A stretch of DNA of 64,000 nt. It comes from Eledone cirrhosa (lineage: Eukaryota). The notes under the pieces are model-generated. The model made no database searches and was not told the DNA's origin. It worked only from the letters and a program-made list of their open reading frames with translations. Made by a program: the position numbers and the translations under genes. The stretch spans positions 80,414,001-80,478,000 of the forward strand of contig OZ024745.1 of the NCBI GenBank assembly GCA_964016885.1. The letters are read 5' to 3'. Shown here one piece after another: positions 9,106 to 63,623 of this stretch. Every line of letters starts with the position of its first letter. Position 1 is the first letter of the stretch.

Positions 9106-10484
9106 TCTATACTATAAAGCTGACGGCCGTATGTAGGTAACAAATTTTCCACCAAACGGTTGGACCAAACAGCACCAAATTTGCACCATAGATGTAACTT
9201 TTTCCAAGTAAAAATGTGAGGGTATTTTTGTTAAAAGATTAAAGACATTATTTAAATATTCACTTCTTTAAAATTTCAAATGTCAACACTTCCGGTTATA
9301 CGTCATTCCTCATTTTTTCTTATGACGTCGCACAACATTGCCCTCTTTTTCTTAGTCTGTCTTTTTAGATAGATACATAGCTATAACGTAGCGCCCTTTT
9401 AATATGTCTCTGTATGGCTGGCTGCCTGCATTAGATAACATTTTTCGAAATATTTACTTCTGCGTTCACAGACGGATTTTTTTAGTTTCAGAAGATCCCG
9501 TTAAGGGTGAAAGCAGCAATTCTTTGCTTAAACTTTAATCTGTTATTTTAATATATATATTCGTGTACAGATACTTTTGCATACACAAAAACAAAAACCT
9601 ATTTATTTCACGAAAGCACAGACGGCTTATCGTCATTGTTACTGTTTGAGGTTAGAGGACCACAGTCTTTCCAAGATCTGAGAACCATCAATGGCCCACT
9701 TACCGTTTGGCTTGCCAGATGCGTGGTATGTTACACGATGACAGCCATTGGCACCTCACCCTGCAAGAAGCAGCAACTGCTAAAGTCCCTTCTCAGCTGC
9801 GAAAATTTTTTGCTATTATGCTGCACAACTGCGATCTCACCGACCCTCTCGCACTGCGGAAGTCTAGCTGAGGACATCCTCCACCGCACATGCAGACACA
9901 ATCCAAACGTAACATACGATGTCGTTTTCAACGAGGCGCTCATTTGTCTAGAAAACAGTGTCTCCTGGAGATTGGTGGTCGGCCTCTAAGTCACTACAGC
10001 TGACCTGCTCCTGACAAGAGTGTCCAGAGGTCAACGTCTACAGAGCTTCTCCGCAAGACGAGCTATGAAATCAGTGATTCTCCCATGGTCAATTGTAAGT
10101 AGGATGTTCTAGAATGAGCTCGCCAAACAATCTCTTCATCTTTGCTCCGGAGGGCCGAACAAAAGATATTGAATACTCTGAGGTTCTAACAATGTAATTT
10201 AAATATTTTCTGTTACTTTGAATTTCCATTATGGTTGTATAAATTATTGTTTGTTAAAAAATTTGTTCCCTGTTCAGTCTTTATTGTTGTAACTATCAAT
10301 TTTCTTTAATGTATTTGCTTGATGAACAGGGGAATCCTAAAAACTATTCAAACCCAACATCAGAGCACGTTAAACACTCCCACCCCATTGATTTGAGAAG
10401 GCGTGCAGTATCTTTGCACTAGAGTGTAGGGGGGATTCCTGAAAAGATAAAATGCCGGTATACCTAGCCGGACGGACCAGCTAG
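9106..10484 (+). mobile_element. Internally deleted Helitron with Rep/helicase remnants
   Basis: 5' A|TC at 9106; 3' CCGG..CCGG hairpin then CTAG|T at 10481-10484. Remnants LLLFEVRGPQSFQDLRTING, GMLHDDSHWHLTLQEAA..PSQLRKFFAIML, and PIF1 motif FSHGQL*VGCSR...TKDIEYSEVL. Confidence 0.88.
9484..9534 (+). ncRNA. Hammerhead-like motif with variant core CAGAAGA (family E)
   Basis: AGTTT-CAGAAGA-TCCC gttaa GGGT-GAAA-GCA..TGC-TT-AAACT; second copy at 39569-39619. Confidence 0.5.
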
Positions 10485-16788: not shown

Positions 16789-17099
16789 TTCCTTTGTCAG
16801 TGTTGAACAAAAGGGCAACGATGGTTGCCGAACACTGTACGGCTTAATTCTGGCTGTTTGTTTACAAACAAACCAAACATTATAATAAATGTTCGGTAAA
16901 CCCATCCGTACATATATATATATGTGTGCATGTATGTATGTATATACATACTACTGTACGTCTGTAAACATATATGTATGTACGTATACATACTTATATT
17001 TAAGTATCAGCCGCATTAAGAGTGAGAAATGAAATTTCACTTTTTCCATATATATATATATATATATATATATAGAAGTGGTATTTAATTTGTTGGAAG

Positions 17100-17520
17100 T
17101 CCGACAAATATAAATGTTATAACTGATTTAGAGCACTCAACAAATTACTGGAGTATATATTCAATGATATTAAATAAATGGAAACTATATTTATAAAACC
17201 ATATTTATTTTATTATATATATTTCAAGGGCAACTATTTCAATTCACTATCCAGTGAATTTCCAACCGATAAGGTATGATTTTCTTGGGTATGTCTCTAT
17301 TTATAAAATAAACTTTGTATTTTATCTGATGAAAGCGTACCAATGTTGTCTTGGTTGCCCTTGAAATATATATAATAAAATAAATATGGTTTTATAAATA
17401 TAGTTTTCATTGTTGGTAATTCAACAAATATAAATGTTTATAACTGATTCAGAGCACTCGACAAATTTTCTGGAGTATAATATTCAATGATATTAAATAA
17501 ATGGAAACTATATTTATATA
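17100..17520. mobile_element. Hammerhead element family C with inverted and direct duplications
   Basis: ~17182-17234 is the reverse complement of ~17354-17406; ~17105-17195 recurs at ~17424-17518. Confidence 0.75.
17318..17382 (+). ncRNA. Type I hammerhead ribozyme motif
   Basis: TATTTTAT-CTGATGA-AAGCGTACCAA tgttgtc TTGGTTGCCCTT-GAAA-TATATA-TA-ATAAAATA; 8-bp stem I. Confidence 0.75.
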
Positions 17521-20963: not shown

Positions 20964-21720
20964 AATAATAATAATAATGAAATTATTGTGTAAAGTGCTC
21001 AGGTGCACTACAATTTGTCAAAGGTGCATGTATAGTACATAGAATAATATACAAATGTCAGGGAAGTGAATAGTGTATGAGTCATGATATACATGTGTGT
21101 ATGTGTATGGAGGGGGAACATTAGGTGTAGTGTTGGCGAATCTCGGGAAGCATGGAGGTTTTAAAGGATGCAGTGTCTCGACAGCTAACAACTGATGCAG
21201 GTAGTTTGTTCCATGCTTCAGCAACTCTGAGCGTGAAAAAAGTTTCCGAAAGTCATGGGAACTGTGCTGTTTTCTGACTTTGTGGGGGCATGTCCACGTG
21301 TGTTAGACACATGGAAATCAAAAAGGTACTCAGGGTTGTTGTTGGCAAGATGGTTAATAATTTTGTGGGTGTTTACCAAGTCAGTTGCCAGGCGTTGGAG
21401 CTTCAATGTATCTATGCCCAGGGAAGCAAGGCGTTCAGAGTATGGTAGATGCCTGATGGAGGGTATTCGCTTGGTTGCACGTCTCTGAGCAGTTTCCAAG
21501 TGGTCAATATTCTGAGCAAGATAGGGGTTCCAGACTGGTGATGCAAATTCTAAGTGTAGCCGCACCATAGCCATGTACAGCCTTAAATAGATAGCTGGAG
21601 AGCGGCTGACAAAGGTCTTGCTGAGTGATGCTAAGACACCCTCGGCCCTCTTTAGAGAGGGGAAGAACTGGGTGCATTGTATCAAAGTACAAGCATTAGA
21701 GAGGCTATCAGTCATCGACT
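20964..21720 (-). mobile_element. CR1-type LINE 3' end
   Basis: LRLYMAMVRLHLEFASPVWNPY..LETAQRRATKRIP..LPYSERLASLG; (TTA)n tail at ~20964-20978. Confidence 0.92.
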
Positions 21721-22839
21721 CAACTTGTGGCCAAGTTTGTCGACCTTCTCACGGCAGGCCTTGGAAAGTAATCACTGATCTCTGGTCTCAAGTGAACAAC
21801 AATCAGGGATCAACTCATACAACTCATATGCAAGAAGAAGGTTAACTTAATTAAAAAGCCCTCTTTACCCCATGGGGAAGAAGGGGAAGTAAGATGCTTT
21901 GTTTCAAGGCAGCTGGTTTGGGGGTAAGAAGGGAGGCTAGTATGATTTAATATAGCATCTCAACATAGCATCAGCATCCTTTTTTAATCAGGATTGTCTC
22001 CTCACATAGAATATTGAATTGTTTACAAAGTTTATACAGTAGACAAGGAGTGGCATTTATTGAAGTGAAGTTTAGAAAAATTGATAGAAAACAGGATAGA
22101 CAGATGGTTATGAAGGCTAAGTCTTTATTCCAGAGAAGATGCTCCCACTGTCCTCAACATAAGTTACTTATTAGTGAAGTCAGAATAAGAACCAGACTAA
22201 ATCAGAAATGCAGGAAAATGTATGTGTGTGTATATGTGTGTGTGTGAAACACTTGGTTTAGTCAGAACAAGTACAAGGGGATTTGGATGCACTTACATTC
22301 ACGTCATTGGCATATCATTGACTATGTGATTGTAAGACATAATGATTTGCAGGATATCAGATCTATATGTTGTATGAGAGGGGGCAGAGCAGAGTGTTGA
22401 ATGGATAACCGTCTCCTAAGAGCAGCACTCCATGTTTGTGTTTGGAAGATGAAACATGGTAATGTTACGGTGTAGAGACATATAAATGTCTCACAATTGG
22501 CTTGCCTAGAAAAACAAAATAATTTTCAAGAAGCGCCTTACATTATTTGAACACTTTCACCCACTGAGATTTTTCTGCACCTTCCTTCGAGCATGACAAA
22601 AACTTATCCAGACATGTTTTCTTTTCCCTTAGAAGGCTTTCCACGAGTGGTTTGTTTGCGGTAAATCAGTCCTGATGTTTTTGCTCTGCATAACCCTTTG
22701 GAGAATTCTCTTGTAACTGGGTTGCCCTGAGAAATTTACGGGGCTTGTATGTTCATTGTATGGTGACCTGAGATCATGGGTTTACATCAATGGTGAGCTC
22801 CTAGAATCTTTCTCAGTTGAGACAGATGGGAAAAGAGTG

Positions 22840-24300
22840 ACCTACTTGCTCCAACTTTGTTTGCCATTTTCTCTGCAGTTGTTTTGTTAAAAGAATACTC
22901 CAACTTAGATGTTGGCAAATATATATGTAATCATACAACAGGAAGGCTCTGTAACATCCAAGGATTCCTTGCTGCATCAAAAACATATAATACATTTATA
23001 CATGATCTTTATGCAGATGACTGTGATCTTGTTAGCCACATGGAAGAAGACCATAAAATTCTGATGGATTCTCGACAACGTGTGATGAGTTTGGGCTGAC
23101 AATCAACCTGAAAAAGACAGTGATTATGAACCAGCATGCACCCGGAAATCCATATATTGCACCATCTATATCTGTCAAAGGGAAAATATTGAAGATTGTG
23201 GATAAGTTTGTCTACCTGGGTAGTACTCTCTCCAGAACCAGCACCCTTGATGAAGAGGTAAGTTACCGGCTGTCTAAAGTTTCTGGTGCTTTTAGTAAGC
23301 TAGAGAAGCACCTGTGGTCACAGTTAGATATCAGTGTGCACATGAAAATTGAAGTCTATCAAGCTTGTACTTACAAACTTGCTGTATGGATGTGAGACAT
23401 GGACATATACTGTGGGTATATCCAGTGCCTCAAATGTTTTCACCAACAATGCTTGTGCTCCAACATTAAGATCTCAAGATGGTCTCATATACCAGACACT
23501 GATGTGCTGCAGTGGACCTCTCTGCCAAACATTGAGACCAAGATTATGAAACAGCATCTCTGGTGGTCAGGTCACATAGTACACTTTGAGAACAGCAGAT
23601 TCCCACAAAAGTATTGTATGGAGAACTGTTGAAAGGCAAACACCTGCAGTGCAAGCCAACAATTGCTTTAAAGACTGCCTGAAAGATACCCTAAAGAAGG
23701 TCAACATTAACATGGGAAAATTTGGCAACAGACAGAGTTCAGTGGCAAAATCTGATTGCTACCATTGTTGAGGAGTTTGAAAAGAGGATGACGGCCTATG
23801 CTGTAGTGAAGCAAGCAGCTAAATATATGGGGGATATTAGTCCAATCCCAGAACAAAGTTTTAAAGAAATTCTTACGTGTGAGGTATGTGGACATGTATG
23901 TATGTCAAAAGCTGGACAACTAATCCATAGCAGACATCATACTCATGGAAATAAAACATTTGAGTACCCCACAAACTTTGATGTTGCAAGTGGCATCTGT
24001 ACCAAAGTGTGTCACTCTGCAAGTGGGCTAACACAGCATCACAAAGCATGCTATGCCAATCAAACTCAAGCAGGCAGGATACTTACCTGCATACTGTGTG
24101 GTATGACATGTAAGTCACATCCTGGTTCCATAAGCCATCTAAGGATGCATTAATAACACATTTTTGCCAATGTTTTTTTTTTTGTTCAAAGAAGTGGTTG
24201 TACTCGAACACGAGTTGGCTTCCATTGTGTATGAATGTATGTTCTCTCTTTCTCATAATTTGGCCAGGATTGGCCTCATCAGCCACCTCTGGACACACAA
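22840..24300 (+). mobile_element. RTE (BovB-like) LINE 3' half with C-terminal C2H2 fingers, frameshifted
   Basis: [37 protein letters not shown], then CEVCGHVCMSKAGQLIHSRHH / CTKVCHSASGLTQHHKAC / CILCGMTCKSHPGSISHLRMH. Confidence 0.9.
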
Positions 24301-39537: not shown

Positions 39538-39568
39538 TCCTATATATATAGTAAAAATAATAAATTTG

Positions 39569-39619
39569 AGTTTCAGAAGATCCCGTTAAGGGTGAAAGCA
39601 GCGATTCTTTGCTTAAACT
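39569..39619 (+). ncRNA. Hammerhead-like motif with variant core CAGAAGA (family E, copy 2)
   Basis: Identical to 9484-9534 except one stem III loop base. Confidence 0.5.
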
Positions 39620-40189
39620 TTAATCTGTTATTTTAATAAATATATATATATAAAGAAAAAAATCTGAAGTCTATCTCAAGCCCAGATGCTCATCAGGCCT
39701 GTGCTAACCCCAGTTTCCGTGCCATGAAGCAACTAGAGTATAAGGACTTCGCCCTGGACATGATGCTAGTCCATCACAGGGTTAAACCCCCAGCTATTAC
39801 TGGTACTTGTTTTAGCTGAGTATACTGAAGCAGCCTGAGATGAAGTGTTTTGCCCAAGAACAAAACATCCAACCCATAACACCCTTACCATTTGGTCACG
39901 AACCGCCACTATACATATACACATACATAAATATACTTACATATTAAATAGAATATATTTTTACATGACTCACTGGAAGAAGTGTTTGAGGATTCTACCC
40001 CAATGACCCTCTCAAGAATAAATGGGTGAAGAAGAAGAAATATGTAGTAGGGTCGCAGGAAGTTTAGCCAAGAATGTAGGTTGTTTATGTAGCCGTTGCA
40101 CTGGAGCAATAAGCAGCAAACGCCCACAGGAAAAACACGTGCTATCAAATACTGGGAAGGCTCAGTAGAAAGAGTAGACAGCTTCTGCA

Positions 40190-46705: not shown

Positions 46706-47490
46706 TTCTATTCTAAGGCGGGTAAAATTCCCGAGATCCATGGACGAGTTCTCTCCAGCGGTCTTTGTCCCTCATTATCGCTGCCATGTCCTGCGTCTCC
46801 AATAGACCAGTGTCTGTCCTTAGGGCATCAACATACGTTAACCTTGGTCTTCCACTTCTAGTGTGTCCATGTAGGGGCTCCCAAAGGAGCACTGAGTGCA
46901 ATGTCAACTCTGGATGTCGGTGAGCATGTCCAGCTAACCTCAGTCTCCTCTGTGTCACTTTTGAGCTGACTTTTGGGATGCTCCCATACAGCTCTTTTTA
47001 TCATCGTAGTGGACTATTGTATGCGCTTTGCACTGGAGAAACACCAGGACTCTGGCTTTACTGTGGCAGAGGATTTGATGCGGGAGGTTGAGACTGTGTC
47101 GATGAGTGTGGGGCTGAGAATGAATGAGACTAAAACAAAATATCCGGTAGAGAATGTTGAGAAGCCAGAGGGGATCACTAATGTAAGCGGGAAGCCGCTA
47201 GAATTGGTTGAGGGCTTCCTGTATTTGGGAGCAAAGATTGGGAATACGGAAGATGATGTGGTTGAGAGGAAGAGCAAGGCCTGGGCGGCGTGCCACAGCT
47301 TGAGATCGGTGTGGAAGTCGGACCTTCGTAGAGACCTGAAAATCCGCCTCTTCATGCTGTAGTGGAGTCTGTGCTGCTGTATGGGTCTGAGACTTGGACA
47401 CTGACCAAGAAACTCACTCAGATGGTGGATGGGTGCTACACGAGAATGCTGAGGATGGCTCTGAACATTAATCAGTATACACTGAGGATT
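46706..47490 (-). mobile_element. RTE-type LINE with 5' inversion
   Basis: 46713-46970 (-) is the ORF C-terminus QRRLRLAGHAHRHPE..GRP..DRWRELV; 46973-47488 (+) is the upstream RT segment ..FLYLGAKI..YGSETWTLT..RMLRMAL. Confidence 0.88.
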
Positions 47491-47689: not shown

Positions 47690-49630
47690 CCTTGAGTCTA
47701 GTAAGACATCCTCTCTAGTGCTGGTGGCACAAATAAAAGCACCCAGTCCATGCTGTAAAGTGGCCCTGGTGTTAGGAAGGGCATCCAACCAGTATATCAA
47801 TGCCAAAACGCTTGTCAGCACAGCAACAAATAGGAACAACAACAAAATATGAAAACGTCACATCTCAGAATTGCAACACTTAATGTTGGCACTCTCAGAG
47901 GTAGATCTGCTGAAATAGTGGAGATGCTGGAGAGAAGGCAGGTGGATGTGTGCTGCAAGAGGTGAGATGGAGAGGTGCTTCTGCAAGACTAGTCGTAGGC
48001 AAACGTCTTAGCTATAAGCTATTCTGGGTAGGTAAGGATGATGGGTTAGGAGGAGTAGGCATTTTCCTGGCTGAGAAATGGATCAATAAGACAATAGAGG
48101 TAGTTCGAGTTAGTAATTGAATAATTAAGCTTAGATTAGTTGTAGGAAGGAGACTACTGACAATCATCTCGGCCTATGCTCCCCAGCAGGCTTAGGCAAA
48201 GATGAGAAAGACTGCTATTATGAGCAACTTTTACAAACAACCGCAATGACAGAGGACGGAGACATCGTTATGCTAGCAGGGGACTTCAATGGTCATGTTG
48301 GACAGCTCCAGGAAGGTTACACTGGGGTACATGGTGGGCACGGTTACAGTTCAAGAAATGAAGGAGTGAGACTTCTTGAATTTTGTGATGCAGGTACATT
48401 GACTATTTGCAACACAAATTCCAGGAACCTGCCAATCACTTAATAACCTACAAATCTGGTGAGCACATAAGCCAGATTGACTTCTTACTAGTTAGGCAGC
48501 GGGACAGGCAGATAGTGTCTAATACCAAGGCATACCCTGGGGAAGAATGTACCCCACAGCATAGGTTAGTTGTTAGTGATATCTCAGTAAGCAAGAGATG
48601 GAATGAGACATATAGGAAGGTGTGGAGAAGAAAGGTCTGGAAGCTAAAAGACCTTTCACTAAAATACAAATTTAGGAAAGCCCTTTAAGATGTATATGAC
48701 GAAAAAGAAGACGATTTAGAGACGTATGACATAGATAATAACTGGAATTTCTTACGTGTCAACTTGCTGCAGGCTACTGATGAAACTTGTGGCTGGAGCA
48801 GAGCTCCAACCAGACAGAGAGTGACCTGGTGGTGGAACAGCACAGTAGATAAGGCGATTAGAGACTAAAGACTAGCATGGAAGGCTTGGAAAAAGGGTGG
48901 GAGTGGGGAAGAATATACAGCCACTAAGAGAGAAGCTAAACGTCAGGTGTACTTAGCACGCAGGGAGGCAGAGAGTAGGAGGTTTGCCAATGTTCTGCGA
49001 CGGGAAGATCAGAGGCGTGCGGTGTTCCACATTGCAAGGCAGTGTGTCAATGCAAATCAGGATGTTGTTGGAGATAAATGTGTCCGGGATGATGCCGGTG
49101 TACTTAGTGTCACGAATGATCAGAAAAGGAAGGCCTGAAATGTCATTATGAGAGACTGATGAATGTGGAGAACAAATGGGAGAGAGAGAAATTACCCTTG
49201 GTAGATCCGACAGAGGGACCAGCTATTGAGATTGACGAATATAGGGTCCAAGAGGCGATTAGGGAAATGAAAAATGGTAAGGCTGCCGGACCATCGGGAA
49301 TAGTTGCTGAGATGCTGAAGGCGTCAGGGGGACGTAGGCACTAAATTGGTTGCACGCATCATCAATCAGGCTATATATGGTGGTGTCATACCCAAAGACT
49401 GGTGCAGCAGTATTCTCATAAATTGCTACAAAGGTAAAGGGGATGCTCTGGAGAGGAGCAATTATAGGGGTATGAAACTGATAGATCAGGTTATGAAAGT
49501 TGCAGAAAGGATTTTAGCACAATTAATTAGAGAAAGGGTCAAACTAGATGAGATGCAGTTTGGTTTTATGCCTGGGAAGAGTACAACAGATGGCCTCTTC
49601 TTGGTGAGACATTTGCAAGAGAGGTTCTCC
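47690..49630 (+). mobile_element. RTE-type LINE 5' part (APE endonuclease and start of RT), decayed
   Basis: LRIATLNVGTL, AGDFNGHVG, SQIDFLLVR, QHRLVV, NYRGMKLI, MQFGFMPGKSTTD; several stops and frameshifts. Confidence 0.93.
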
Positions 49631-49634
49631 AGGA

Positions 49635-49823
49635 AACTGGAGCACTGTGAAATAAAGTGTCTTGCTCAAGGAAACAACACATCGCCCGGTCTGAGAATTG
49701 AACTCACAACCTTTCGATTGCAAGGCCAATGCTCTAACCACTCAGTCATATATATATATATATATATGCAATCGAAAAGTTGTGAGTTCAATTCTCAGAC
49801 CGGGCGATGTGTTGTTTCCTTGA
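49635..49823. mobile_element. SINE B head with local inverted duplication around (TA)n
   Basis: ~49666-49722 is mirrored at ~49767-49824. Confidence 0.8.
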
Positions 49824-50278
49824 CCCTTTCTCTACGGTTAGCTCTCCTCTTTGTTGTTATCTTGTCTCACTCGCTTTACGCGTTTTAATTGTCCTAATAA
49901 CTTAATTTAGTTATTATTGCACCGACGTGAGGTATATGATTTTTAATGCAATGAAATATCTATGATCGTCGGCAAATCACTGATGAGGGACTCATTTTAT
50001 TACATATTATCCATGTGCAACCTGCAGTATTCTTCTCCCCATTTTTTTCACATATATATATATATATAATATTATATTATATATTATATATATATATATA
50101 CTATATATATATATATATATAATATTATATTATATATATATATAATATTATATATTATATATATATATAATATTATATATTATATATATATTATATATAT
50201 ATATTATATTATATATATTATATTATATATATTATATTATATATTATATATATATATAATATTATATTATATTATATA

Positions 50279-52517: not shown

Positions 52518-52582
52518 TATTTTGTCTGATGAAGGCATACCATAATTTAATGTGGTATCCCTGAAATATGTATAATGAAATA
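52518..52582 (+). ncRNA. Type I hammerhead ribozyme motif (family C)
   Basis: TATTTTGT-CTGATGA-AGGCATACCATA atttaa TGTGGTATCCCT-GAAA-TATGTA-TA-ATGAAATA. Confidence 0.78.
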
Positions 52583-52621
52583 AATATGGTTTTATAAATA
52601 TAGTTTCCATTTATTAATATC

Positions 52622-52624
<3 letters not shown>

Positions 52625-52667
<43 letters not shown>

Positions 52668-52756
52668 ATATTATATATAATATAATATTATATATATATA
52701 TAATATAATATTATATATATATATAATATATATATAATATAATATTATATATAATA

Positions 52757-52798
<42 letters not shown>

Positions 52799-52859
52799 TA
52801 TATATATATATATATAATATATTATATATATATATATTATATATATAATATATTATATA

Positions 52860-52899
<40 letters not shown>

Positions 52900-53012
52900 T
52901 ATATATATATATATATATATAATATATTATATAATATATTATATATATATATAATATATTATATATATTATATATATTATATATATATTATATATATATA
53001 TATATATAATAT

Positions 53013-53057
<45 letters not shown>

Positions 53058-53181
53058 TATATTATATATATATTATATATATATATATATATATAATATT
53101 ATATATATATATATATAATATATTATATATATATAATATATTATATATATATAATATATTATATATATAATATATTATATA

Positions 53182-53219
<38 letters not shown>

Positions 53220-53223
53220 TATA

Positions 53224-53263
<40 letters not shown>

Positions 53264-53334
53264 TATATATATATATATATATAATATATTATATAATATA
53301 TTATATATATATTATATATATATATAATATATTA

Positions 53335-53379
<45 letters not shown>

Positions 53380-53415
53380 TATATATATTATATATATATA
53401 TATATATATAATATT

Positions 53416-53446
<31 letters not shown>

Positions 53447-53943
53447 TATATAATATATTATATATATATATATATATATATAATATATTATATATATATA
53501 ATATATATTATATATAATATAATATATATATATATATATTATATATATTATGTATATATAATATAATATATATATATATATTATATGTATATATAATATA
53601 ATATATATATATATATTATATGTATATATATAATATATATATATATATTATATATATGTATATATATAATATATATATATATATTATATATATACATATA
53701 TATAATATAATATATATATATATATTATATATATACATATATATAATATATTATATATATATAATATATTATATATATATATATAATATAATATATTATA
53801 TATATATATTATATATATATATATAATATAATATATTATATATATATAATATATTATATATATATATATAATATAATATAATATATATAATATAATATAT
53901 ATATATATAATATAATATTATATATATATATAATATATATATA

Positions 53944-54019
<76 letters not shown>

Positions 54020-54180
54020 TAATATATATATATATATATAATATATATAATATATATATATATATATAATATATTATATATATATATATATATATAATAT
54101 ATATATATATAATATATATATATATATATAATATATTATATATATATATATATATAATATATTATATATATATATATATA

Positions 54181-54222
<42 letters not shown>

Positions 54223-54381
54223 TATATATATATATATATATTATATATATATATATAATATATTATATATATATATATATATTATATATATATATATAAT
54301 ATATTATATATATATATATATATTATATATATATATATAATATATTATATATATATATATATATTATATATATATATATAT

Positions 54382-54434
<53 letters not shown>

Positions 54435-55441
54435 GTAATATATATATATATAATATATATAATATTATATATATATATGTAATATATATATATATATATA
54501 ATATATATAATATTATATATATATATGTAATATATATATATATATATAATATATATAATATAATATTATATATATATGTAATATATATATATATATATAA
54601 TATATATAATATAATATTATATATATATATAATATATTATATATAATATATTATATATATATATATAATATAATATATATATATATATAATATATTATAT
54701 ATATATAATATATTATATATAATATAATATATTATATTATATATATATATAATATATTATATATATATATATAATATAATATATATATATATATAATATA
54801 TTATATATATATAATATATTATATATAATATAATATATTATATTATATATATATATAATATATTATATATATATAATATAATATTATATATATATATATA
54901 ACATAATATAATATAATATTATATATATATATAATATAATATAATATTATATATAATATAATATAATATTATATATAATATAATATTATATATATATATA
55001 ATATAATATTATATATAATATAATATAATATTATATATAATATAATATATATATATATAATATAATATTATATATATATATAATATAATATAATATTATA
55101 TATAATATAATATTATATATATAATATAATATAATATTATATATAATATAATATTATATATATATATAATATATAATATTATATATAATATAATATTATA
55201 TATATATATAATATATAACATTATATTATATATATATATATATATAATATATTATATATATATATATATATATAATATATTATATATATAATATAATATA
55301 ATATATATAATATAATATATTATATTATATATTATATATATATATATATATATAATATATTATATATATAATATAATATATATAATATAATATATTATAT
55401 TATATATAATATAATATAATATTATATATATAATATAATAT

Positions 55442-55477
<36 letters not shown>

Positions 55478-55480
55478 ATA

Positions 55481-55527
<47 letters not shown>

Positions 55528-57176
55528 ATATAATTGTGTCTACTTTAGACACAGGGCCAGCAATTACCCAGTGCATTACTGGTACTTTATTTTATCGACC
55601 CCGTAAGGATGAAAGGCAAAGTCAACCTCGGCGGGATTTGAACTCAGATCGTAAAGGGACGTAACTATGCTGGAAAGCATGGCGTCCGACCCTCTACCGA
55701 TACTATAATATAATATTATATATATATATAATATATATATATATATATAATATAATATATATATATATATATATAAAATATAATATTATATATATATATA
55801 TATATAATATTATATATATATATATATATAATATTATATATATACTATAATATATATATAATGTAATATTATATATATATAATATAATATATATATAATA
55901 TAATATTATATATATATAATATAATATTATATATATATAATATAATATTATATATATAATATAATATATATATAATATAATATTATATATATATAATATA
56001 ATATTATATATATATAATATAATATATATATAATATAATATTATATATATATAATATAATATTATATATATAATATAATATATATATAATATAATATTAT
56101 ATATATATAATATAATATTATATATATATAATATAATATATATATAATATAATATTATATATATATAATATAATATTATATATATATAATATAATATTAT
56201 ATATATAATATAATATATATATAATATAATATTATATATATATAATATAATATTATATATATATAATATAATATATATATAATATAATATTATATATATA
56301 TAATATAATATTATATATATATAATATAATATTATATATATAATATAATATTATATATATATATATAATTATATATATATAATATAATATTATATATATA
56401 TAATATATTATATATATATAATATATTATATATATATAATATATTATATATATATAATATATTATATATATTATATATATAATATAATATATATATAATA
56501 TAATATATATATAATATATTATATATAATATATATATATAATATTATATATATATATATATATATAATATAATATATATATAATATATATATATAATATT
56601 ATATATATATATAATATATTATATACATATTATAATATATATATATAATATAATATTATATATATAATATTTATATGTATAATATATATGTATAATATAT
56701 ATATATAATATATTATATATATATATATATATATAATATAGAATAGAATATAATATAATATAATATAATATAATATAATATAATATAATATTATATATAT
56801 ATATATATATAATATATTATATATATAATATTATATATATATATATATATAATATATTATATATATAATATTATATATATATATATATATATAATATATT
56901 ATATATATAATATTATATATATATATATAATATATTATATATATAATATTATATATATATATATATAATATAATATATATATATTATATATATATATATA
57001 TATATAATATTATATATATAATATATTATATATATAATATTATATATATAATATAATATATATAATATAATATATATAATATAATATATATAATATAATA
57101 TATATAATATAATATTATATATATAATATTATATATATATATAATATAATATAATATTATATATATAATATAATAT

Positions 57177-57207
<31 letters not shown>

Positions 57208-57426
57208 ATATAACATTATATATATATATAATATAACATTATATATATATATAATATAACATTATATATATATATAATATAACATTATATATATATATAA
57301 TATAACATTATATATATATATAATATAATATTATATATATATAATATAATATATATATATATATAATATATATACATATAATATAATATTATATATATAT
57401 ATAATATATTATATATAATATAATAT

Positions 57427-57458
<32 letters not shown>

Positions 57459-57928
57459 ATAATATTATATATATATATAATATATTATATATATATATAT
57501 AATATATTATATATATATATATAATATATTATATATACATTTAATATAATATTATGTATATATATAATATATTATATATACATATAATATAATATAATAT
57601 TATATATATTTAATATAATATTATATATACATATAATATTATATAATATATATATAATATAATATAATATACATATAATATAATATATATATATATATAA
57701 TATAATATTATATATACATATAATATAATATATATATATATATATATAATATATATTATATATATAATATAATATTATATATACATATAATATAATATAA
57801 TATATATATATAATATAATATTATATATACATATAATATATATATTATATATATATATATATATATAATATTATATATAATATAATATAATATATATATA
57901 TAAATATAATATTATATATATATATATA

Positions 57929-58015
<87 letters not shown>

Positions 58016-58230
58016 AATATATATATATTATATATATATATATAAAGTATATATATAATATATATATAAATATATATATATTATATATATATATATAAAG
58101 TTATATATATAATATATATATATATATATTATATATATATATATATATATAATATATATATATATAATATTATATATATATATATATAATATATATATAA
58201 TATTATATATATATATATATATAATATATA

Positions 58231-58273
<43 letters not shown>

Positions 58274-58401
58274 TATATATATAATATATATATATATAAT
58301 ATATATATATATTATATATATATATAATATATATATATATATATTATATATATTATATATATATTATATATATATATAATATTATATATATATTATAATA
58401 T
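52625..58401. repeat. Very long (TA)n-derived array
   Basis: Almost pure A/T; one SINE inside. Confidence 0.97.
55531..55704 (-). mobile_element. SINE family A
   Basis: Reverse-complement match. Confidence 0.92.
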
Positions 58402-58601
58402 NNNNNNNNNNNNNNNNNNNNNNNNNNNNNNNNNNNNNNNNNNNNNNNNNNNNNNNNNNNNNNNNNNNNNNNNNNNNNNNNNNNNNNNNNNNNNNNNNNN
58501 NNNNNNNNNNNNNNNNNNNNNNNNNNNNNNNNNNNNNNNNNNNNNNNNNNNNNNNNNNNNNNNNNNNNNNNNNNNNNNNNNNNNNNNNNNNNNNNNNNNN
58601 N
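58402..58601. other. Assembly gap (200 N)
   Basis: Run of N. Confidence 1.
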
Positions 58602-59443
58602 ACACTGTTTCAATGTAGAAATATTAGTTCATATAAAAACAGGCACTATAATGTAAATATCAGTATTCTTGAATGAGATACGTATCTATAATGTGTGAAA
58701 AGTAATGATCATATGTCTAGTTTTAAAAATTCATATGTTTATATCATAACTATAAACATCGATGTGAATTTACGTGATCAGCTCTGCAAACTCCTATTTC
58801 ACACGGAAAACATTCTCATTGTGCTATAAAAATTCAAGTATACATATATGTGTATATATACACATATATATAGAGTCTATATTAATTTTAACAATACTAT
58901 TCATGTCTTTACTCTACATGATTATCGATCAAGCAGAAATAGAGAACAGATTTCAATATATTAATAAAAATATCAGAAACAAAAAACAAAAATAATAATA
59001 AATAAATAAAACAGAAAACTAAAAAATATTAAATATTAAGAATAAAAATATTAAAAATATTAAAAAATATTAAAATAATAAAAATAAAAACATAGTATGC
59101 CACGCAAATCGACCACAAAGATCAACCCTTCAAAGTTAATTGACAATATATTGCCAAGTTCATTATAAGCATCAGAGTCAAAAACAGATAAAACCAAAAA
59201 TTATTTACCAAATCCTGTCTAGCAGAAATCATTTCAAAAGTTTAGGATACCCATTTGGTCTACATATGTTCTTATATTTAATATAGAAGTTTATCTAGTG
59301 TAACATTTATTCGATATATTTGGAGCATCAACTTTTAGGGTAGTTTAATTATTCATGAAGAATGTTTAAAATAAAAATAAAAAGAAGAAATCGAAAGATT
59401 TATCGGCTAGTTTCATAAATAATTACAAATCAAACTAAATATA

Positions 59444-60031
59444 CTACATTTTAAATTTAAATTTATATTTAAAAGTTGAGTTCAATCTATGTCTGCAGCA
59501 ACTGAATAAATTTGTCCGTAGATTAAGGGAATTTTTAGATTTTAGTATAAAGAATATCTCCTCCGCGCAGAGGTCACATGTCTCAGAGGATGAATTAAAA
59601 GGAATCCCTCTTGAGACTATATTCCAAGCCGTCGAATATCTAACGTTATCATGCCTAAGTTGCCAGAGTACGCCTGATAGTGCTGTTGAAGATTTTTTGC
59701 TTGGATCTGTGAAAGAATTCTTGTGGTTATTATAGCGAAGTTTAAATTCCGTCGATGTGGAACCAACGTAGTTAAAAGAATTAAAGTCCGTTTTAACATT
59801 ACAGTTGTATATTATATTTTTAACTAAGCAGTTGTTATTTAACGGACATTTAGATCTATCTCTACAGTTACATTTGTTAACTTGGATATTATTTATGCTA
59901 TTATCGCTAGGTTTTAAGTTCCTATTATTTATTCTATTAATATTTTGTGCTAAATTTTTGGTGGATGAGTAGGTTAATTTTATAGTATGTCTATTGAAAA
60001 TTGAGTGATACCTATGTGTTCTAGGGAATTT
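59444..60031 (-). mobile_element. Penelope-like element (Naiad-type) C-terminal GIY-YIG endonuclease, 5'-truncated at (TA)n
   Basis: Stop-free 195 codons: KFPRTHRYHSIFNRHTIKLTYS..CNCRDRSKCPLNNNCLVKNIIY..YVGSTSTEFKLRYNNHKNSF..TALSGVLWQL..CDLCAEE..LNLRTNLFSCCRH..*; no upstream start codon, so missing from the ORF track. Confidence 0.92.
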
Positions 60032-63095
<3,064 letters not shown>

Positions 63096-63163: not shown

Positions 63164-63623
63164 AATAAAGCAATGCAGATATCGGATAAGAAGCACTCTA
63201 CAGTTTGTAGGACTGGAGTATACATCATATATAAGAACGAAAGATGGTTAAAAGAGGTCCATGTATTTTATTATGCGCATTTGAAAAACAAATATCATCA
63301 TGCAATAATATGTGTTTTCATCAGATAAAACAGGAAGACATAATATGAAGGTTAAAAAACACTTGTGGATAGTGCAGTTTTAAATCAACATAAATATGTT
63401 GATTTAAAACTGCACTATCCACAAGTGTTTTTTAACCCTCATATCATGTCTTCCTGTTTTATCTGATGAAAACAAATATTATTGCATGATGATATTTGTT
63501 TATGAAATGCGCATAATAAAATACATGGACCTCTTTTAACCATCTTTTGTTCTTATATATTATGTATACTCCAGTCCTACAAACTGTAGAGTGCTTCTTA
63601 TCCGATATCTGCATTGCTTTATT
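63164..63623. mobile_element. Hammerhead family C fold-back, ~228 bp arms
   Basis: Palindrome centred on AAAT (63392-63395); one hammerhead motif per arm. Confidence 0.9.
63455..63523 (+). ncRNA. Type I hammerhead ribozyme motif
   Basis: TGTTTTAT-CTGATGA-AAACAAATATTATT gcat GATGATATTTGTTT-AT-GAAA-TGCGCA-TA-ATAAAATA. Confidence 0.75.

Follow-up and report, generated by a model that had tools for sequence, protein, structure and literature searches.

The window analysed here, a stretch of 64,000 nucleotides of Eledone cirrhosa DNA, carries on its minus strand at 60031-59444 an open frame of 195 codons followed by a TAG stop. The stop-free frame given in the initial annotation is therefore real on the minus strand; the plus strand of 59444-60031 is riddled with stops. 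At the same base composition an open frame of 194 codons would arise by chance with P = 2.5e-7, about 0.002 being expected in the window. Measured from stop to stop, the frame is 10 codons longer and reaches into the flanking TA array. It contains no ATG, GTG or TTG start that yields at least 20 aa and its sole Met is the final codon; the ORF caller, which had overlooked the frame, skips it because no usable start codon is present.

The frame with its stop (59444..60031, minus strand) is the startless 3' quarter of the ORF of a Hydra-clade Penelope-like element (PLE), and it was aligned with the C-terminal ~185 residues of 12 near-full-length proteins that combine a reverse transcriptase (RT) and an endonuclease (EN). 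Residues 2-53 (59873..60028, minus strand) are a remnant of the segment between the RT and the EN linker, as judged from alignment with the pre-linker segment of full-length relatives and, by eye, with the published Hydra alignment. The linker itself (59846..59872, minus strand; cysteines at 59872-59846) has the CxCx5C arrangement that is the Hydra form of a putative Zn-binding linker, with C54, C56 and C62, then P63 and C68. It had been written as CxC-x4-CP-x4-C; the cysteines and the CP are present but the spacing is x5, i.e. CxC-x5-CP-x4-C, and this one-residue difference matters because CxCX5C is the published Hydra signature.

The GIY-YIG nuclease core (59489..59815, minus strand), supported by the predicted fold and conserved columns, carries the CxxC and CxH of Hydra elements and is without a CCHH finger. 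The IIY..YVG, R..NH, CxxC..E, N and CxH motifs reported earlier were all located in the translated frame, with IIY at 59815-59807, YVG at 59770-59762, CxxC at 59578-59567 and CxH at 59497-59489. All GIY-YIG catalytic-position residues (Y, G, R, H, E and N) are present, including R99, H103, E158 and N170; the CxxC is formed by C152/C155 before E158 and the CxH by C179/H181 after N170. Between IIY and YVG there is a single Cys, at a column that is Ala in 93 of the 102 aligned relatives; the two Cys of a CCHH finger at this place were found in none of these 102 and are absent from the query too. The last residues of the ORF are encoded by a 26-nt AT-rich near-palindrome (59449-59474) that may mark a rearranged 3' junction.

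The structure was predicted from an alignment of the query and 102 relatives, and the endonuclease model had a mean pLDDT of 88.7. Its top structural match among 48,161 chains was I-TevI (PDB 1ln0; Z 9.8, rmsd 2.1 over 88 residues), and T4 EndoII (Z 7.9) and UvrC (Z 6.6), also GIY-YIG nucleases, were among the four best. Foldseek likewise ranked I-TevI first at E 0.29, with nothing at E <= 0.001. A Pfam search with the protein returned no GIY-YIG match and a chance hit alone (E 0.31); Pfam GIY-YIG was detected at E <= 0.1 in 23 of the 103 alignment members, the query not being among these. A PDB sequence search with the 103-sequence profile gave 0 matches and nothing matched in a tblastn search of a phage collection. 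An Atlas search returned unnamed or GIY-YIG clusters at 0.95-0.97, in which the few recorded taxa were molluscan or cnidarian. The frame thus encodes a GIY-YIG endonuclease, and its earlier identification as that of a PLE is supported.

Relatives, domain order and clade

At E <= 0.001, a search of cluster representatives matched 5449 proteins; the 150 best of these, together with further searches, provided 154 distinct relatives. The query is 31-45% identical to the listed relatives, 45% being the highest value for any of them, and the alignment with the query took in 102 of the 154, mainly shorter ones. The YRDD motif of the RT lies upstream of the EN in all 12 listed relatives of at least 640 aa, which also have RW[K/R] (10/12) and DKT (11/12). 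Twelve of the 154 were dropped from the count of RT order as they had no locatable EN anchor; among the 142 listed relatives with such an anchor, YRDD was found upstream of the EN in 25 and Y/FxDD downstream of it in none. The tail after the EN match is short (median 11 aa in the 154 listed relatives). In the fragment, too, RT-side sequence precedes the EN, since the part ahead of the linker matches the RT side of full-length relatives in alignment. The CxCx5C linker occurs in 110 of the 154 listed relatives, CX2-5CxxC in 6, CxxC..E in 146 and CxH in 133.

The clades of PLEs are defined here as by Craig et al. 2021 (PMC8557442). Naiad elements are there given an N-terminal EN, CX2-5CxxC and CCHH fingers and no canonical hammerhead, while Hydra elements are given a C-terminal EN, RWK and DKT, a CxCX5C linker, no CCHH, and CxxC/CxH around the conserved E and N. 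The same source ascribes to the Hydra clade hammerheads, which it calls universal, as well as (TA)n insertion and no IFD, with a (TA)n preference in 26 of the 27 Hydra families listed. In Penelope/Poseidon, Neptune and Nematis a CCHH finger is present, two Cys lying between GIY and YIG (PMC8557442, in part). In the fragment the EN is C-terminal with a stop directly behind it, the linker is CxCX5C, there is no CCHH, and CxxC precedes E and CxH follows N. An N-terminal EN, a CX2-5CxxC linker finger and a CCHH finger, the EN features of Naiads, are absent from it, and so are the two Cys between GIY and YIG of Penelope/Poseidon, Neptune and Nematis. By eye, the query fits the Hydra rows of Fig. 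S7 and not the Naiad rows of Fig. S2 (PMC8557442, in part).

Judged by its EN motifs and by relatives at 31-45% identity, as opposed to an RT tree, the fragment is a Hydra-clade PLE. The label "Naiad-type" in the initial annotation has to be given up, for every long relative has its EN at the C-terminus and neither Naiad finger is present, which corresponds to the Hydra clade. With a best identity of 45%, the family is probably an uncurated Hydra family. Our literature search, which left most subscription journals outside its scope, found no paper on this particular family, and Repbase or Dfam may already list it.

The truncation point and the TA array

Compared with the 12 listed relatives of at least 640 aa, about 510 residues (445-557) are missing upstream of the fragment, including the entire RT core. 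A profile of 15 long relatives found no other RT piece of the family and no tandem second copy in the window (next-best E 1.1). Frames at 21218-21748 (minus strand) and at 23057-23395, 46970-47362 and 49319-49888 (all plus strand) may be fragments of LINE-type reverse transcriptases, which they resemble.

The truncation point abuts an impure (TA) array at 60032..61760, the likely insertion target, which has 1729 nt with one G/C base and 48 AATTT units. The earlier statement that the 5' end stops directly at (TA)n holds insofar as the fragment abuts a TA array, but this array is an impure one of 1.7 kb and not pure (TA)n. A further 20 AATTT units lie in the TA array at 61951-63060, and none were found in the 5776 nt of the array beyond the assembly gap (52626-58401). 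The pentamer at the junction, AATTT, is the repeated unit of the array itself. The first codon (Lys) is probably array sequence, because His is the commonest residue at this position (41/68 relatives) and the junction AATTT equals the array unit; a 2-nt TT microhomology at the junction is possible. The TA adjacency is seen at the 5' junction of one copy, in a window of which TA tracts cover 14%. A SINE-like repeat of ~180 nt is abundant in the window (61770-61950 and 13 further matches, 78-98% identity), one copy being embedded in the TA array beside the fragment. Together with the TA richness, this repeat gives the sequence something of the look of an octopus genome.

Hammerheads downstream of the fragment and elsewhere in the window

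Downstream of the frame, 842 nt of unique or T-rich DNA (58602..59443, minus strand) extend to a 200-N assembly gap at 58402-58601 and represent 3' UTR and/or unrelated DNA. This DNA includes a T-rich repeat (58988-59090) as well as a few nucleotides resembling a TA tract (about 58840-58875). One plus-strand frame, 59096-59446, resembles a decayed ORF (9 stops in 117 codons) and is possibly an older inserted element displacing the 3' UTR.

Five kinds of search, including Rfam and a descriptor scan, found no hammerhead in 58602-59446, confirming what had been noted for the 840 nt downstream. A model of the window's own hammerheads gave a best E of 5.1 in the downstream region and a covariance model of Hydra-type hammerheads a best score of 6.3 bits (E 0.52). 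Rfam returned 0 hits in the window at gathering thresholds and, at E <= 5, 150 listed matches out of 166 that included no hammerhead family; it is a weak test here because it missed the real hammerheads of the window too. Candidates for a decayed hammerhead near 59175, 58976, 58930 and 59332 and a GAAAC at the edge of the gap were rejected, the best fuzzy match having 2 edits and being equalled by 21 of 60 shuffles. Two folded downstream stretches had z values of -1.2 and +0.2; folding energy does not discriminate, since three real hammerheads fold as weakly (z +0.2 to -1.8).

As a positive control, genome contigs were scanned and 8 loci with related RT-EN ORFs (L001-L008) were obtained. A hammerhead follows the EN by 107-224 nt in 7 of these 8, and in 5 of the 7 a (TA)4 or longer lies 64-438 nt beyond it. 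Ten hammerheads picked from these control loci covary on the expected structure (95% paired, with a compensatory change in 8 of 12 pairs). The loci are PLEs of the Hydra type, flanked by TA and showing pseudo-LTR hammerheads and inverted copies, situated in assemblies labelled bacterial, and we infer that they are most likely eukaryotic contamination; the same kind of contamination has been described for Naiads (PMC8557442, in part). The eight are not independent because five come from one assembly. Set against 7 of 8 related loci, then, stands the lack of a hammerhead within 840 nt of a single copy that is possibly rearranged and ends at a gap. Its absence would be most simply explained by loss in this copy through deletion, insertion or decay. 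We consider it improbable that a recently active Hydra lineage is truly hammerhead-free and that separate hammerhead families, sharing its TA arrays, use PLE machinery in trans. Such a lineage would represent an independent loss, as in Naiads, and would offer a natural test of whether PLEs are served or parasitised by hammerheads.

A descriptor scan for type I hammerheads over the whole window found three with an exact core, at 17326, 52526 and 63463, all on the plus strand. Two of them (17318-17386 and 52518-52586, plus strand) belong to one family, being 79% identical over 127 nt, and each is part of a short element that terminates at (TA)n; the copy at 17070-17520 has inverted and direct pieces nested in the manner typical of PLE ends. 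The third lies in an inverted repeat of 460 nt (63164-63623), whose arms are 96.5% identical and each carry, 70 nt away from the centre, a type I hammerhead, that at 63463 (plus strand) intact and that at 63324 (minus strand) with one core change. This structure has the appearance of two 5'-truncated PLE 3' ends, from a second family, placed head to head. As a pseudo-LTR of the fragment it was rejected, no sequence being shared.

An 81-nt repeat with a hammerhead-like layout occurs at 9480-9560 and 39565-39645 (plus strand; 96% identical), with the variant core CAGAAGA in both copies; these are the variant pair of the descriptor scan at 9489 and 39574. About 25 nt further on it ends at a short run of TA, and the copy at 39574 is TA-flanked on both sides. 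Its matches to the Hydra-type hammerhead model are weak (E 0.05 and 0.34). The stop-to-stop frame at 9552-9989 (plus strand), directly after the 9489 repeat, may be a piece of a Helitron helicase, which its translation resembles.

The initial annotation had proposed the fragment as the candidate autonomous driver of these hammerhead elements. This is contradicted by the loss of ~510 residues including the RT core, the missing start codon and the want of any sequence shared with the hammerhead elements; the complete RT-EN ORF with a start codon that autonomy calls for is absent. The Naiad label also clashes with the idea of a driver, Naiads having no canonical hammerheads (PMC8557442, in part).

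A different proposal is that the fragment's family, rather than the copy itself, mobilises the hammerhead elements in trans as their autonomous partner. In its favour, the hammerheads of Hydra elements are of type I, a Hydra-like layout, if weak in the model, is seen in the 81-nt repeat (9480 and 39565), and animal retrozymes have been derived from PLEs in a preprint that proposes them to be non-autonomous PLE derivatives (10.64898/2026.07.22.740005, in part). Both the family's copy and the hammerhead elements lie in TA arrays, and this shared target says little because TA tracts are so widespread in the window. Against the proposal, blastn detected no similarity between the hammerhead elements of the window and the fragment, and local alignment of 5 hammerhead units with the downstream region on both strands scored no better than shuffles in 8 of 10 tests. 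The remaining two alignments, equalled in 6 and 10 of 200 shuffles, had low scores and fell on opposite strands for two near-identical copies, and are thus inconsistent. Stem III is a palindromic AT...AT in the three exact-core hammerheads of the window, as opposed to AC...GT in all 10 control-locus hammerheads aligned and in all 26 Hydra rows of File S2 (PMC8557442, in part). Type I PLE hammerheads with a palindromic helix III are thought to act as dimers (PMC4209133, in part). With no shared sequence and a different stem III, nothing ties the hammerheads of the window to the family of the fragment, and we regard mobilisation in trans by this family as unlikely.

Age, origin and comparison with known elements

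Of the 28 columns conserved at 90%, the copy keeps 27, which is the family median; it matches 57 of 88 majority columns, a value in the lowest 1% of the relatives that may reflect lineage divergence or decay. Under simulated neutral decay with indels at one-tenth of substitutions, P for an open frame fell from 0.25 at 2% divergence to 0.03 at 5% and 0.006 at 8%. Simulated without indels, it survived 10% divergence with P 0.14, so the age estimate hinges on the assumed indel rate. The copy is probably fairly young. The "recent insertion" deduced earlier from the open frame can be retained as far as limited decay is argued for, but the word "recent" would need sister copies in its support.

A frame that has stayed open and kept every catalytic-position residue and 27 of 28 strongly conserved columns would also be expected of a domesticated, expressed host exon held open by selection. 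However, the frame has no start codon and begins within the TA array, truncation of the 5' end at TA is usual in PLEs, and a young copy accounts for the open frame without selection, so that we judge domestication very improbable. A Naiad element, with an N-terminal EN and an RT lost downstream or hidden in the gap, would suit the missing downstream hammerhead, as Naiads, which are found in cephalopods, have a (TA)n preference and no canonical hammerheads (PMC8557442, in part), but this reading is refuted by domain order and motifs: the stop directly behind the EN, the lack of a CX2-5CxxC finger as well as of a CCHH finger, pre-linker residues that align to the RT side of Hydra-type ORFs, and an RT motif after the EN in 0 of 142 listed relatives.

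The locus is thus very probably a 5'-truncated, non-autonomous fragment of a Hydra-clade PLE in a TA array. Its identity, domain order, truncation and TA adjacency are shown by the analysis; the following origin may be proposed. A full-length master elsewhere in the genome would have made an RT-EN protein of ~700 residues. Its C-terminal GIY-YIG domain would have nicked AT-rich DNA in the TA array, and the RT, primed on the nick, would have copied the element RNA from its 3' side by target-primed reverse transcription, both steps by analogy with other PLE clades. Synthesis would have ended ~190 codons into the ORF, and the cDNA end would have been joined to the array, possibly via the 2-nt TT microhomology; the copy would have lost its hammerhead through a deletion, an insertion or decay. 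In vitro, AT-rich DNA is cleaved by a Poseidon element, which favours 5'-ATT-3' and extends both strands (PMC11167929, in part). The AATTT units at the junction fit this cleavage preference, which, Poseidon being of a different clade, is only suggestive. Having no start codon and no RT, the fragment cannot move by itself and most likely does nothing now.

The significance of the fragment is mainly one of annotation, in that Hydra-clade endonucleases slip past Pfam and ORF callers. The Hydra family that it represents, in a TA-rich animal genome, is probably uncurated and fairly young. No model is changed by the fragment, which would bear on the role of hammerheads in PLEs only if full-length copies lack a hammerhead too. 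In the literature examined, no study of a Hydra-clade endonuclease in vitro was found. Whether the CxCx5C linker directs TA targeting could be examined with this family, but any Hydra element would be equally suitable.

Among known systems, the closest solved fold is the catalytic domain of I-TevI (PDB 1ln0), which at ~20% identity differs from the fragment in being a phage intron endonuclease that lacks the Cys motifs and is not fused to an RT. Naiad elements such as Naiad_Obim and Naiad_Ovul share the PLE GIY-YIG EN and have a (TA)n preference and no canonical hammerhead, to be compared with the TA adjacency and the hammerhead-free downstream DNA of this one copy, but differ in an N-terminal EN, the CX2-5CxxC and CCHH fingers, DKA, an IFD and the CxC features (PMC8557442, in part). 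Hydra-1_Obim, a consensus of 2507 bp from Octopus bimaculoides, is of the same clade and has what is also the likely target of the fragment; with 26 of 76 EN-core residues identical (counted by eye) and an insertion between GIY and YIG, it represents a different family (PMC8557442, in part). The fragment most resembles the Hydra clade at large (e.g. Hydra-1_Amil, Hydra-2_Amil, Hydra-1_Ajap, Penelope-1_NV and Penelope-2_HM; PMC8557442, in part). It differs from these in having no RT, no hammerhead within 840 nt and at most 45% identity to any listed protein, and shares with them the C-terminal GIY-YIG EN, CxCx5C, the lack of CCHH, CxxC/CxH, the likely TA target and 5' truncation, and, in its relatives, RWK/RWR, DKT and YRDD.
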